A stretch of DNA of 32,000 nucleotides from Mycolicibacterium smegmatis (GCF_001457595.1 NZ_LN831039.1:1830001-1862000), one strand, 5' to 3'; positions 15,310 to 20,874 are shown, counted from the first letter of the stretch. Made by a program: numbers and translations. Notes: generated by a model not told the origin, from the sequence alone.

Positions 15310-15720
15310 TCAGCCCGCGACCCGCCGGTCCTTGCGTGCCTGGAGTTCGTCGTCGTCGACGAAGGCGAGCATCGGTTGGCCCGGCGCGCACATCATGGTC
15401 ACGGTGAAGCGGACCGGGATGTCGCTGCGGTTGTTGCCGTCCTGGTAGTGGATGACGTCGCCGCCGGGCTCCCAGAACGCTTCACCGGCGCGCACGACGC
15501 GCGGCGGTTCGCCTTCGAGTTCGAACAGCATCTCGCCTTCCAGCACGTAGCCGAACGCGGGTCCGGAGTGGCGGTGCGGGGGAGAGCCGGGGTCACCGGG
15601 CGGGAATTCGACCACGATGGTCATGGCGTGCGCGCCTTCGGGGAAGTGTGGCGCATGCACCTCCTGCACCACGGTGATCGCGGTCTTCCATGCCTCGCTT
15701 CGGGTGGTGTTGCCGGACAT
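15310..15720 (-). CDS. cupin domain protein
   Basis: 136-aa ORF with the cupin metal motif region PPHRHSGPAFGYVLEG ... AGEAFWEPGGDVH. A strong Shine-Dalgarno GAGGAGA lies 5 nt upstream of the ATG. It starts 12 nt after the SDR stop. Confidence 0.75.
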   Translation of the reverse strand: MSGNTTRSEAWKTAITVVQEVHAPHFPEGAHAMTIVVEFPPGDPGSPPHRHSGPAFGYVLEGEMLFELEGEPPRVVRAGEAFWEPGGDVIHYQDGNNRSDIPVRFTVTMMCAPGQPMLAFVDDDELQARKDRRVAG

Positions 15721-15732
15721 GACGGTCTCCTC

Positions 15733-16455
15733 TCAGACGGCTGCGCCGCCGCCGTCGGCGTGCAGGGTGGACCCGGTGATGAAGCTCGCGCGCGGTGAGC
15801 ACAGGAACAGCACCGCGTGGGCGATCTCCTCGGGCTGCGCGGTGCGGCCCAGCGGCAGGGCTTTGCCCAGTTGTTCGTTGGTGTCGCCCCATTCGGCTTC
15901 GACCCCTTCGGTCCGGGTCGGCCCGGGCGCGACGCTGTTGACGCGGACCCCGCGCGGACCGAACTCGGCGGCCCATGTGCGGGTGAGGGATTCGACGGCG
16001 GCTTTCGACGCGCTGTAGGTCGAGGCGCCCGCGACGCCCTTGGACGCGACCATCGACGTGACGTTGACGATGCTGCCCCGGCCGCGTGCGAACATGCCGG
16101 GAGCCAGTTGGGCCACCAGGAAATACGTTCCGCGCACGTTGGTGTCGAAGGTGCGCTCGTAGGAGGCGATGTCCTGCTCGACGGTGAGCGCGCCGGGGAA
16201 GCTCGCGGCGTTGTTGACGACGATGTCGGCCGTATCACATTGTTCGGCAAGCGCGTTGACCGACTGCAGATCCGACAGGTCGGCCTGCACGAATCGCACG
16301 TTGTCGCCGAGTTCGGCGGCTGCGGCCGCGCCGCGGTCGGCATCACGGCCGGTGATGGTCACGCGGGCGCCTTCTCTGGCCAGCAGGTCGGCGCACGCGC
16401 GGCCGATGCCCGCGGTGCCTCCGGTGACCAACGCGTGGTATCCGCTGAGTTGCAT
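15733..16455 (-). CDS. short-chain dehydrogenase/reductase (SDR)
   Basis: 240-aa ORF with the TGGTAGIG cofactor motif, NNAA, and catalytic S...YSASK. Shine-Dalgarno GAGAGGAA precedes the ATG. It starts 15 nt after the sigma factor stop. Confidence 0.9.
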   Translation of the reverse strand: MQLSGYHALVTGGTAGIGRACADLLAREGARVTITGRDADRGAAAAAELGDNVRFVQADLSDLQSVNALAEQCDTADIVVNNAASFPGALTVEQDIASYERTFDTNVRGTYFLVAQLAPGMFARGRGSIVNVTSMVASKGVAGASTYSASKAAVESLTRTWAAEFGPRGVRVNSVAPGPTRTEGVEAEWGDTNEQLGKALPLGRTAQPEEIAHAVLFLCSPRASFITGSTLHADGGGAAV

Positions 16456-16470
16456 GTGTTCCTCTCGTGA

Positions 16471-17103
16471 TCAGGCGGCGCAGTCCGCGCTCGCCTGGGT
16501 GTTGTCGGTGACTTCGGTGTCCTGGTTGAGTGCCGCGTCCTCGGTGAGTGCGGCACGCAGGCGCTGACGCGCACGGGCGATCCGCGACATCACGGTCCCC
16601 ACCGGAATTCCCATCAGCACAGCGGTTTCGGCGTAGGTGAAGCCCTCGATGTCGGCGTAGTACACCACCGTGCGGAACCCCTCGGGCAGCGCATCGAGTG
16701 CCGTGCGCACATGCGCGTCGGGAATCGTGTCGAGCGCCTCGTCCTCGGCCGATCGCCATCCCAGGCTCACGTGCAGCGCGCCCGCCGCGAGGTCACCGTC
16801 GGTGACCTCGTCGACGCAGAACGTCGCGGGGCGTCGCTGCGTCATGCGGTGTGTGCTGATCCACCTGTTGTGCATGATGCGGAACAGCCAGGCGCGCAGG
16901 TTGGTGCCGGGGCGGAACCGGCGGAATCCGACGTAGGCGTTCAGCAGAGCATCCTGCACCAGATCCTCGGCGTCGGCCTCGGTGCGGGCCAGCCGGCGCG
17001 CAGTGCGAAGCAGAGAGGGCTGGTAGGGCATGGCGTCGCGGATGAACCGCGCGGTGAGTTCGGCCTCCGATTCCAGGTCATCCAGGTCCGGTGGCAAGGT
17101 CAT
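16471..17103 (-). CDS. ECF sigma factor, SigH/SigR-like paralog
   Basis: 210-aa ORF. It is collinear with mycobacterial SigH from memory: ELTARFIRDAMPY, DAEDLVQDALLNAYVGFRRFRPGTNLRAWLFRIMHN, LRSAEDEAL-type segment, LPEGFRTVVYYADIEGFTYAETAVLMGIPVGTVMSRIARARQRL. No anti-sigma gene follows. Confidence 0.85.
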   Translation of the reverse strand: MTLPPDLDDLESEAELTARFIRDAMPYQPSLLRTARRLARTEADAEDLVQDALLNAYVGFRRFRPGTNLRAWLFRIMHNRWISTHRMTQRRPATFCVDEVTDGDLAAGALHVSLGWRSAEDEALDTIPDAHVRTALDALPEGFRTVVYYADIEGFTYAETAVLMGIPVGTVMSRIARARQRLRAALTEDAALNQDTEVTDNTQASADCAA

Positions 17104-19857: not shown

Positions 19858-19863
19858 CAGGTA

Positions 19864-19890
19864 GACCGGCCGGACCGGTGATCTGTGACA
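19864..19890 (-). promoter_or_regulatory. ECF41-like promoter (TGTCACA-N16-GGTC) 6 nt upstream of the LAL regulator ATG
   Basis: The minus strand reads gcTGTCACAgatcaccggtccggccGGTCtacctgATG. The -35 is exact (plus coordinates 19890-19884). The spacer is 16 nt (19883-19868). The -10 is GGTC (19867-19864), one mismatch to CGTC. The ATG is at 19857. Confidence 0.4.
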
Positions 19891-19959
19891 GCCCGCCACC
19901 GTGGGATGCGTCACGCCGATCGCAGCCGGGACACGGCCTGGTGTGTTTGACTTCAGGCC

Positions 19960-20874
19960 ATGGATCCGGCACCCAGTTCGGCGTCCGATCCGGCGTGGAC
20001 GGAACTCTCGGAAGCGGAAGCGGTCTTCACCCGGGTGCGGCCGCGCCTCTTCGGTGTCGCCTACCGGATGACGGGTACGGTCGCCGAGGCCGAGGACGCC
20101 GTGCAGGAGGCGTGGTTGCGGTGGCAGGACACCGACCGCGCAGCGGTGACGGACCCCGTGCCGTTCCTGATGACGGTGGTGACGCGGATCTGCCTCAACG
20201 TGCTGCAGTCCGCGCGGGCGCGCCACGAAACCTACATCGGCCCGTGGCTTCCCGAACCGGTCGACACCACCGCCGACCCGGCGCTGGGCGCCGAGCGGGG
20301 CGCGGCGCTGGAACTCGCGACGCTGATGTTGCTCGAGCGCCTGGCACCGCCGGAACGCGCCGCCTACATCCTGCGTGAGGCGTTCGACTACCCGTACGAA
20401 CAGATCGCCGAGACCGTCGGTGTGTCGGTGCCCAACGCCAGGCAGCTCGTGAGCCGCGCACGGCGACGTCTCACGACACGGCGCGCGGCGCCGGTGGCCA
20501 CCGCCGAACAGGACCGTCTGCTGCGGGCTTTCGTCACCGCGGCGCGAAGCGGCGACCTCGACGCGCTCGAGGAGATCCTCGCCGAGGACGTGGTGAGCCA
20601 CACCGACGGCAACGGCGTGCGCAACGCCGCGCAGATCCCGGTGGTCGGCCGGACGACAGTCGCCAAGTTCGTGCGTGCCTTCCGCAACCGGCTGTGGTCC
20701 GGCGCGAGCCTGCGGTGGATCACCGCGAACGGCCGCTCCGCGGTGCTCGTCGTCCACAACGATTCTCCCGCCGCGTTTCTCACCGTCGCCGCGTCGGCCG
20801 ACGGGATCCACCGGCTGTTGTGGGTGCTGGCTCCCGAGAAGCTCGCGGGAATCGCGCGGGCCCAGGGACGCTGA
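19960..20874 (+). CDS. ECF sigma factor, group ECF41 (second SigJ-like copy)
   Basis: 304-aa ORF with AEDAVQEAWLRW, the linker signature YIGPWLPEP, and sigma4 YEQIAETVGVSVPNARQLVSRARRRL. The SnoaL-like C-terminal extension contains HTDGNG and a terminal APEKL motif. Confidence 0.85.
   Translation: MDPAPSSASDPAWTELSEAEAVFTRVRPRLFGVAYRMTGTVAEAEDAVQEAWLRWQDTDRAAVTDPVPFLMTVVTRICLNVLQSARARHETYIGPWLPEPVDTTADPALGAERGAALELATLMLLERLAPPERAAYILREAFDYPYEQIAETVGVSVPNARQLVSRARRRLTTRRAAPVATAEQDRLLRAFVTAARSGDLDALEEILAEDVVSHTDGNGVRNAAQIPVVGRTTVAKFVRAFRNRLWSGASLRWITANGRSAVLVVHNDSPAAFLTVAASADGIHRLLWVLAPEKLAGIARAQGR

Follow-up and report, generated by a model that had tools for sequence, protein, structure and literature searches.

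The locus described here lies within a 32,000-nucleotide stretch of Mycolicibacterium smegmatis DNA (GCF_001457595.1, NZ_LN831039.1:1830001-1862000), which we refer to as the window and from whose first nucleotide all positions are counted. The window is mycobacterial, with a G+C content of ~69%, and the order of its genes sdhCDAB, add, satS, upp, and pmmB agrees with that in M. tuberculosis. Our subject is a group of genes around an ECF41-type sigma factor gene, ECF41b. It is divergent from the gene of a large regulator, LAL, which is followed on the same strand by genes for a SigH-like orphan sigma factor (sigX), a short-chain dehydrogenase/reductase (SDR), and a cupin, and it is convergent with a gene for an FAD-binding oxidoreductase, here called the FAD gene (Table 1). 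Promoter motifs that are conserved in related loci suggest a regulatory cascade, which would run from ECF41b through LAL and sigX to the FAD gene.

Open reading frame (ORF) and domain analysis reproduced the five genes from ECF41b to the cupin, with the strands, coordinates, and gaps (48 nt between LAL and sigX, then 15 and 12 nt) given in a preliminary description of this DNA, and the strong Shine-Dalgarno (SD) sites that it placed before the SDR and cupin genes are present. Terminator and inverted-repeat scans of the 48 nt between LAL and sigX found none, in agreement with the terminator-free gap described there. The operon likely ends at a perfect inverted repeat directly 3' of the cupin gene; the repeat also overlaps the 5' end of a 101-aa ORF at 14968-15273. 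A sigma70 consensus scan found no promoter, and an Rfam scan of 15200-20100 (E ≤ 1) returned zero RNA family matches, so the conserved leader and box described below are not a known RNA element.

For comparison, we used 80 genome loci selected by LAL homology. The best matches of this search are just 44-52% identical and include syntenic loci of M. brisbanense (L001) and M. aquaticum (L012). Closer relatives, namely M. goodii (L081) and L082, L083, L084, L085, and L086, were reached via a search with ECF41b, whose orthologues are 67-89% identical and stand in the same gene context. M. goodii (CP012150.1) has the identical cluster. The neighbouring FAD gene is kept in L081-L086, FAD homologues also lie near LAL/sigX clusters elsewhere, and the gene order sigX-SDR-cupin was seen again in many loci. 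L001 and L012 have ECF41, LAL, and sigX but lack the SDR, cupin, and flavoprotein genes, so the enzyme cargo of the cluster is variable.

Table 1. Genes and regulatory features around ECF41b, listed from the first tier of the proposed cascade to the last.
Feature	Position	Strand	Basis and remarks
ECF41b, ECF41-type sigma gene	19960..20874	+	Pfam and NCBIfam matches; proposed top tier
ECF41-type promoter	19864..19890	-	-35 TGTCACA 19890-19884, 16-nt spacer, -10 GGTC 19867-19864
Conserved TACCTG directly after the -10	19863-19858	-	Transcription start predicted near 19857
LAL regulator gene, 901 aa, AAA_16 STAND ATPase and LuxR/GerE helix-turn-helix	17152..19857	-	Domain matches
Composite sigX-operon promoter	17154..17213	-	Upstream-DNA alignment, position weight matrix; inside annotated LAL 3' end
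Three CCACGRN heptads	17213-17193	-	Upstream-DNA alignment
Core box AACCACGGGTTTTCAAGGGTCCG	17200-17178	-	Upstream-DNA alignment
SigmaA-like -10 GAGCCT	17159-17154	-	Overlaps LAL stop codon; weak
sigX, SigH-like (ECF12-type) orphan sigma gene	16471..17103	-	HMM and PDB relatives
SDR gene	15733..16455	-	Domain match; 15-nt gap after sigX, SD GAGAGGA
Cupin_2 gene, last of operon	15310..15720	-	Domain match; 12-nt gap after SDR, SD GAGGAG
Perfect 13-bp inverted repeat, 11-nt loop, no T-tract	15268..15304	-	Directly 3' of cupin stop
FAD_binding_2/Succ_DH_flav_C oxidoreductase gene (FAD gene)	20875..22611	-	Convergent with ECF41b; proposed bottom-tier output
SigH-like ECF promoter candidate	22620..22648	-	-35 CGGATAG 22648-22642, -10 CGTTC 22624-22620; 9 nt to ATG 22611

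ECF41b and the promoter of the LAL gene

ECF41b matches both sigma factor domains (PF04542 Sigma70_r2 and PF08281 Sigma70_r4_2), the TIGR02957 model (375.6 bits; cut-off 323.25), and the SigJ subfamily model NF007214 (278.2 bits; cut-off 271). Residues 189-266 match PF12680 SnoaL_2 (27.2 bits; cut-off 27), the linker between sigma2 and sigma4 contains GPWLPEP, and no anti-sigma gene was found in the neighbourhood. The WLPEP motif is characteristic of ECF41 sigma factors, which are paired with a neighbouring carboxymuconolactone decarboxylase, oxidoreductase, or epimerase (COE) gene that has a TGTCACA-N16-CGTC promoter, TGTT and CGTC being -10 variants (Wecke 2012, PMC3426412). Forms truncated at the C-terminus are hyperactive in the same study. 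The SnoaL-like extension typical of the family is ~100 aa long.

On the LAL strand, TGTCACA-N16-GGTC ends 6 nt before ATG 19857, where the preliminary description had placed it. The pattern TGTCACA-N16-SGTC has two matches in the 32 kb, compared to 0.09 expected, and two or more matches occurred in 0/100 shuffles; the other match is a CGTC site (5001-5027) 8 nt before a carboxymuconolactone decarboxylase (CMD)-like gene. Phylogenetic footprinting, which covers the scan of orthologous upstream regions that had been suggested, found cTGTCACA(G/A)A-N13-[G/T]GTCTAYCTG in 9/9 orthologous intergenic regions. TGTCACA and GTC(TAYCTG) are invariant in all nine, in an alignment with a mean column identity of 60%, and the LAL proteins of the promoter-bearing loci are only ~51% identical. 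The -10 had been noted as a mismatch, but the orthologues carry GGTC or TGTC, so it is the norm of this clade.

Among the 80 LAL loci, the motif lies 5' of LAL in 4/16 with an ECF41 gene and in 0/64 without one, and other LAL homologues have sigmaA-like TANNNT -10 boxes instead (e.g., TAGCCT and TACGCT). It recurs in a second, independent ECF41/LAL paralogue set in M. peregrinum (L079) and another Mycobacterium strain (L068). The order there is ECF41, LAL, LAL, and TGTCACAAAATCGGCTGCTGTTCGGTC, which is the same ECF41 motif, is found immediately 5' of the second LAL. The link from ECF41 to LAL that had been proposed thus holds up in the comparison of loci, and the LAL promoter is very likely a functional ECF41-type promoter.

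ECF41b itself is the likely sigma factor for this promoter. Actinobacteria have many ECF41 copies, both sigma factors of the window belong to ECF41, and both target sites have the form TGTCACA-N16-xGTC, all of which would suit a real promoter that is read by another ECF41 paralogue, such as the SigJ-like sigma factor encoded at 3016-3930. This is unlikely in view of the co-conservation of the divergent ECF41b and the motif in 9/9 orthologous loci, which is repeated in L068/L079, and of the absence of the motif from the 64 LAL loci without an ECF41 neighbour. The sites of the clade also have GATC after the -35 and TAYCTG after the -10, whereas the CMD-like site has neither.

Autoregulation of ECF41b was considered and rejected: no TGTCACA-N16-xGTC faces the gene, and an upstream TGTGAC half has no -10 at the right distance. 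The intergenic region contains two further conserved blocks, an invariant 12-mer AGTCAARCACAC (19941-19952, minus strand), which is 7-8 nt from the ECF41b start codon, and a GTGACRCA block (19907-19914), which forms an inverted repeat with the -35 TGTCACA and is a perfect TGTGACA-N8-TGTCACA in L001 and L012. These blocks may represent an operator or the promoter of ECF41b.

Elsewhere in the window, the region 4405-5027 (minus strand) contains the exact-consensus ECF41 promoter, the 8-nt interval, and the CMD-like gene, whose ATG has no SD site. The encoded protein matches PF02627 below threshold (E = 0.0018) and possesses a CSWC motif, and the gene is convergent with the SigJ-like ECF41 gene and a PNPOx-like gene. 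Two Streptomyces loci (L045 and L057) have five to six GTCACA-N16-GGTC motifs per 14 kb around a pair of LAL and ECF41 genes, which suggests multi-gene ECF41 regulons. One motif of L045 lies just 5' of an alpha/beta-hydrolase gene, and L057 has a box-like CCACGG...CAAGGG before its ECF41 gene.

The preliminary description also proposed a leaderless LAL transcript. The geometry is compatible with such a start, as the A of ATG 19857 is the 7th nucleotide after the -10, but there is an in-frame ATG 24 nt downstream (19833) that is preceded by the SD sequence GAGAGGTGGA (19850-19841). In the alignment, the orthologues have their start codons at this second ATG, and tblastn matches begin at residue 9. 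The position of the first ATG is used as a start codon in the four closest genomes only (as GTG in L082) and holds no start codon in L084-L086, L001, and L012. In L082 (5426-5500) and L083 (6862-6935), a start 7 nt after the -10 opens an 8-codon mini-ORF, the TGA of which overlaps the next ATG, and a second mini-ORF of 5 codons follows; in the window and M. goodii, the 8 codons (19857-19833) are in frame with LAL. Translation of LAL probably begins mainly at ATG 19833, with a leader of 24 nt from a transcript start near 19857. This leader may itself be translated, either as a leaderless extension of 8 codons or as a mini-ORF, and the leaderless reading of LAL is a weak one.

The probable composite promoter of the sigX operon

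The LAL protein is 893-901 aa long and comprises a PF13191 AAA_16 domain (69.8 bits; Walker A GEPGVGKT) and a PF00196 GerE helix-turn-helix (HTH) domain (57.2 bits, residues 829-880). The nearest solved domains of the HTH are DNA-binding domains of NarL/LuxR-family response regulators (VraR, ChrA, and DevR among them). In the clade of the window, the ancestral LAL stop is lost (...QLRT.SWAS*), and the ORF continues for ~20 codons (17152-17215) through the heptads and box of a conserved element that precedes sigX.

Across loci, this element comprises one to five heptads (C/A)(T/C)ACGGA, the core GACTACGGACTTYCAAGGGTYCG, a fixed spacer, and (C)GAGTCTGA. We collected 140 distinct copies from genome and metagenome loci of actinobacteria and built a position weight matrix, which shows a 23-nt core; downstream of it, conservation is essentially limited to an A at +29 and CT at +32/33. 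The spacing of these bases suits a sigmaA-type nAnnnT hexamer, in which they would be A-11 and T-7. The start of a long ORF lies 6-8 nt (mode 7) downstream of the predicted T-7 in 26 copies, a leaderless geometry that is widespread in actinobacteria, and these copies span several families (among them NmrA-like, nitroreductase, SDR, c7, and one ECF41 gene). The geometry of the ORF starts places the transcription start site, and the box is thereby centred near -43, the position of a class-II activator. For the sigX operon of the window, transcription is predicted to start near 17147, with a 44-nt leader. The box core is an imperfect palindrome, CGGAC-N8-GTYCG; DevR half-sites are GGGAC-like, which provides a lead for the LAL HTH rather than a test of it.

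The element is found 5' of sigX in 27 of 28 loci and remains with sigX where a nitroreductase gene sits between LAL and sigX; it also occurs in 18 LAL loci without sigX. It precedes sigX, NmrA-like, nitroreductase, metallo-beta-lactamase-fold (MBL-fold), SDR, c7, and ECF41 genes and is enriched beside LAL genes. A pattern scan for the box in metagenome contigs, a sample that is independent of the selection by LAL and whose contigs are often short, yielded 67 distinct genuine copies, 46 of which have enough upstream DNA to be informative. LAL is encoded on the same contig in 26 of these 46 and directly upstream of the box in 11. Moreover, the sequence type of the LAL HTH correlates with the presence of the box. 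These associations make it moderately likely that LAL activates the box promoter. The step from LAL to the SigH-like sigma factor that had been described is thus plausible, but read-through is probably not its only mechanism, as the sigX operon has its own conserved promoter overlapping the LAL stop codon.

In six loci (L032, L041, L050, L136, L148, and L153), the box precedes an operon that contains an ECF41 sigma gene, and we infer that the wiring there would be from LAL to ECF41, the reverse of that in the window.

Co-localisation with LAL could also come about if the box promoter were autoregulated by sigX, or controlled by some other regulator, and LAL were simply a frequent neighbour. 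Autoregulation is common among ECF sigma factors, the box is 5' of sigX in nearly all sigX loci, and LAL is absent from the contig in 20 of the 46 informative cases from metagenomes. We nevertheless consider this explanation quite unlikely, as in the 18 LAL loci without sigX the box drives SDR-ECF41 or c7 operons, the motif that tracks sigX is a different one (GGATGA-N18-GTT, see below), and the bases downstream of the box fit A-11 and T-7 of sigmaA and not a CGT-type ECF -10. Half-sites that are repeated and inverted, with a centre near -43, likewise resemble those of an activator.

A natural deletion bears on the activation by LAL and on the contribution of read-through. In Mycobacterium sp. 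LTG2003 (L084, 6400-7010), nearly the entire LAL gene is missing, so that the ECF41-type promoter lies ~110 nt 5' of the box element, and a 63-aa NmrA-like remnant stands between the box and sigX-SDR-cupin. This suggests that read-through from the ECF41 promoter can matter. Taken further, the deletion, the gap without terminator or inverted repeat between LAL and sigX, and the overlap of the LAL ORF with the element in the clade of the window would fit a single long LAL-sigX-SDR-cupin mRNA made from the ECF41-type promoter, the box being a minor promoter or not a LAL-dependent promoter at all. Such an arrangement is improbable given that the box and its fixed-distance -10 occur in ~140 copies, many of which have no ECF41 promoter or LAL directly upstream. 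The leaderless start geometry of the copies marks a genuine start site, and the box stays with sigX when other genes intervene. Read-through may co-exist with an internal promoter of sigX, which we take to be the one activated by LAL.

sigX and the flavoprotein gene

The best model for sigX is TIGR02947, with a score (217.7 bits) below its cut-off (251.55), and the best PDB relative is M. tuberculosis SigH (200 bits, E = 2.7e-58). No ZAS anti-sigma gene (RshA/RsrA, HxxxCxxC) is adjacent to sigX, the downstream genes being those for the SDR and the cupin. Two candidates for an anti-sigma factor were rejected. A ZAS motif is missing from the 101-aa ORF at 14968-15273, which accompanies an NlpC/P60 gene, not sigX; the cupin, considered as a ChrR-like anti-sigma partner, matches Cupin_7 below threshold, has no ZAS domain, and carries ordinary metal-binding cupin motifs. 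The sigX protein ends with ...DCAA (16471-16476), and 49 of 50 distinct sigX homologues have an [I/V/A/S]-Ala terminus, which is preceded by a tail that varies in length and sequence. This terminus looks like a degron, as in sigma-AntA (see below), and sigX is probably controlled by synthesis and proteolysis and not by sequestration. In a review table, ECF12s2 and ECF12s9 from Mycobacterium sp. are listed as lacking an anti-sigma factor and as proposed to be 'transcriptionally regulated', a grouping to which sigX might belong.

No promoter motif was found between sigX, SDR, and cupin. Since the SDR and cupin genes are translationally closely coupled to sigX and lack separate promoter motifs, we take them to be co-transcribed with sigX and not to be its targets. 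The promoter relation between the sigma factor and these two genes, as originally described, is not supported; the three genes form one operon.

The site CGGATAG-N15-GGCGTTC (22648-22620) precedes the FAD gene, and transcription is predicted to start at ~22611. The motif is kept 5' of the FAD gene in seven orthologous loci despite a differing upstream neighbour (upp or an NmrA-like gene). Its consensus over all loci is GGGATGA-N16-CCGTTC, equivalent to GGATGA-N18-GTT, and it is found 5' of FAD, NmrA-like, MBL-fold, and SDR genes. Several FAD genes, that of the window included, have their ATG exactly 9 nt after the GTT. The strict motif GGATGA-N18-GTT has 27 matches in the 80 loci compared to 1.3 in shuffles, and it is present in 21/32 loci with sigX and in 1/48 without (Fisher p = 2.3e-10). 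Apart from a difference at -35 positions 4-5, it is similar to GGAAYR-N17-18-GTT, the SigH consensus defined by experiment. Because the motif tracks sigX and resembles the SigH consensus, and because sigX is SigH-like, we propose that sigX drives the FAD gene, a link for which we see the chances as evenly balanced.

The canonical SigH pattern GGAAY-N16-19-SGTT was also tried and has two matches in the window, compared to 2.3 expected, neither of which is relevant to the cluster. A canonical SigH-type match, GGAATTTACAAGGTTTGACTTAGGTT, is found at 25463-25488 (plus strand) between a MarR gene and a gene at 25509-26618, whose orthologues in L081-L086 are annotated as PF05145 AbrB.

In the common architecture, the GGATGA-N18-GTT motif precedes the NmrA-like gene of a run that continues with nitroreductase, LAL, the box, sigX, SDR, cupin, and c7. 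With this arrangement, LAL and sigX would activate each other in a positive loop, which we put forward with lower confidence because LAL genes also carry sigmaA-like -10 boxes of their own. In two Kribbella loci (L034, 11088-11113; L075, 4482-4507), the FAD homologue has an ECF41-type promoter and adjoins an ECF41 gene.

The proposed cascade and known systems

In the scheme that we propose, ECF41b acts on LAL and LAL on sigX, with SDR and cupin co-transcribed, and sigX acts on the FAD oxidoreductase; the balance tips slightly in favour of this scheme as a whole. It retains the order of ECF41, LAL, and SigH-like sigma factor from the three-tier cascade of the preliminary description, in which the SDR and cupin genes were the third-tier targets, a place for which the FAD gene is the better candidate. 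ECF41b, which has the fused SnoaL-like domain that controls sigma activity in the ECF41 family, would guide RNA polymerase to TGTCACA-N16-GGTC, the divergent promoter, and thereby determine the level of LAL, whose mRNA would begin near 19857. By analogy with MalT, the STAND ATPase LAL would oligomerise on binding ATP and an inducer. It would then bind the ACGGAC-repeat/CAAGGGTYCG box, which is centred ~43 nt 5' of the weak sigmaA-type -10 GAGCCT, and thus activate the sigX-SDR-cupin operon, which would make the SDR and the cupin outputs of the second tier. ECF41-driven read-through might add a feed-forward path to the sigX operon because there is no terminator between LAL and sigX. Finally, sigX, without an anti-sigma neighbour, would read GGATGA-N18-GTT promoters and in this way act on the flavoprotein gene. 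In the clade of the window, ECF41b and its promoter would have replaced the sigX-type input that the NmrA-like run provides in most other mycobacteria.

Several observations weigh against this scheme. Divergent ECF41-LAL pairs outside mycobacteria (L060, L064, L072, and L073) lack the ECF41 motif, and an ECF41 promoter before LAL was rejected for them, their LAL genes having a TANNNT-type -10. The link between ECF41 and LAL is consequently lineage-specific, and we conclude that the ECF41 promoter before LAL represents a lineage-specific rewiring. The window has two ECF41 paralogues, and the target site of ECF41a has CGTC; judged by sequence, either paralogue might read the LAL promoter. At the second tier, the assignment of LAL as the box-binding protein draws on co-localisation in 80 loci that were themselves selected by LAL, the correlation between HTH type and box is confounded by phylogeny, and the 20 metagenome copies without LAL on their contig count here as well. 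The proposed -10 GAGCCT has no T at -12. L084 has retained both promoters without LAL, so the operon is able to persist without an adjacent LAL. At the third tier, the site of the window departs from the consensus (CGGATAG and GGGATGA, respectively), and the chromosomal SigH or SigE might read the GGATGA-GTT motif instead of sigX.

All three promoter links are derived from sequence conservation, and this would also leave room for there being no cascade, with motifs that arose by chance or are conserved for other reasons and neighbours that are independently regulated. We regard this as very improbable: all three motifs are much more frequent than expected from shuffles, their distances from start codons are fixed, and they are conserved where the flanks have diverged.

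The cascade proposed for the window might be one form of a wider circuit. Tentatively, and with less than even confidence, we suggest a widespread and hitherto undescribed actinobacterial circuit of mutual control between the LAL clade and orphan ECF sigma factors, which in the clade of the window was opened and rewired to ECF41 and integrates two small-molecule sensors. In such a circuit, the LAL-box promoter would drive a degron-tagged SigH-like sigma factor or, in some lineages, an ECF41 sigma factor. The promoter type of that sigma factor would in turn drive NmrA-nitroreductase-LAL and redox enzymes, giving a positive loop and a dispersed, detoxification-type regulon.

ECF41 is among the most widespread sigma groups, and its published regulons are essentially a single neighbouring enzyme gene. 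If the cascade is true, an ECF41 sigma factor can top a multi-layer network, feeding a ligand-sensing regulator and then a second sigma factor. For the SigH paralogues of environmental mycobacteria that have no anti-sigma factor, the scheme offers activator-dependent synthesis and a C-terminal degron as a proposal for their control. The three motifs can be used directly for genome-wide regulon prediction. Flavoprotein, NmrA-like, SDR, and hydrolase outputs are wired to ECF41, LAL, or SigH-like promoters depending on the lineage, and the same outputs under different promoter types provide a natural example of regulatory rewiring.

The components of the scheme are all members of known families, and there are precedents for every type of link. 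A literature search for ECF41 together with LuxR returned nothing relevant, and a search for the box sequence returned unrelated primer matches only. New in the searchable literature appear to be the ECF41 promoter before a LAL regulator, the LAL-box promoter with its dispersed regulon, the GGATGA-GTT motif that tracks the SigH paralogue sigX, and the conserved C-terminal Ala of sigX homologues.

ECF41b has in common with the ECF41 factors of COE genes the sigma2/sigma4 domains, the WLPEP motif, the SnoaL-like extension, the lack of an anti-sigma factor, the divergent layout, and an identical -35 and spacer. However, the target in the window is a 900-aa STAND/LuxR regulator and not a small COE enzyme, and the -10 is GGTC or TGTC in this clade. 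A COE-like gene, the FAD gene, does adjoin ECF41b, yet it carries a SigH-like promoter. Compared with SigH/RshA and SigR/RsrA (ECF12), sigX has M. tuberculosis SigH as its best solved relative and has a similar promoter candidate but differs in having no adjacent ZAS anti-sigma gene, a TIGR02947 score below the cut-off, and different -35 positions 4-5. LAL resembles MalT and other LAL regulators in its length of ~900 aa, its N-terminal STAND ATPase, and its C-terminal LuxR HTH. MalT recognises asymmetric boxes that are repeated and reach into the -35 region of promoters whose core is weak. The LAL of the window is proposed to bind repeated boxes in the same way, although the box sequence is unrelated to that of MalT and LAL falls outside the MalT equivalog (30 bits; cut-off 537).

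The arrangement had initially been presented as not described, which is overstated because two related cascades have been published. One of them starts from FscRI, a PAS-LuxR regulator. In Streptomyces albus, FscRI acts on the orphan ECF sigma factor sigma-AntA, which carries a C-terminal Ala-Ala ClpXP degron (summarised in PMC8999054). Both sigma-AntA and sigX are orphan ECF sigma factors that have no anti-sigma factor and an Ala-Ala terminus, and the transcriptional control of sigma-AntA by a LuxR-family regulator is what we propose likewise for sigX. They differ in ECF group and in the class of the LuxR regulator; sigma-AntA serves an antibiotic cluster, and the degradation of sigX is a prediction. 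HrpL and SigE are other ECF sigma factors that are transcriptionally regulated. The second cascade is that from SigJ to sigI in M. tuberculosis (Homerova 2008, as cited in PMC5766207). As in the window, the direct target of an ECF41 sigma factor is another transcription regulator gene, but the target there is an ECF41 sigma factor, whereas here it is a LuxR-family STAND regulator that apparently controls an ECF12-type sigma factor.

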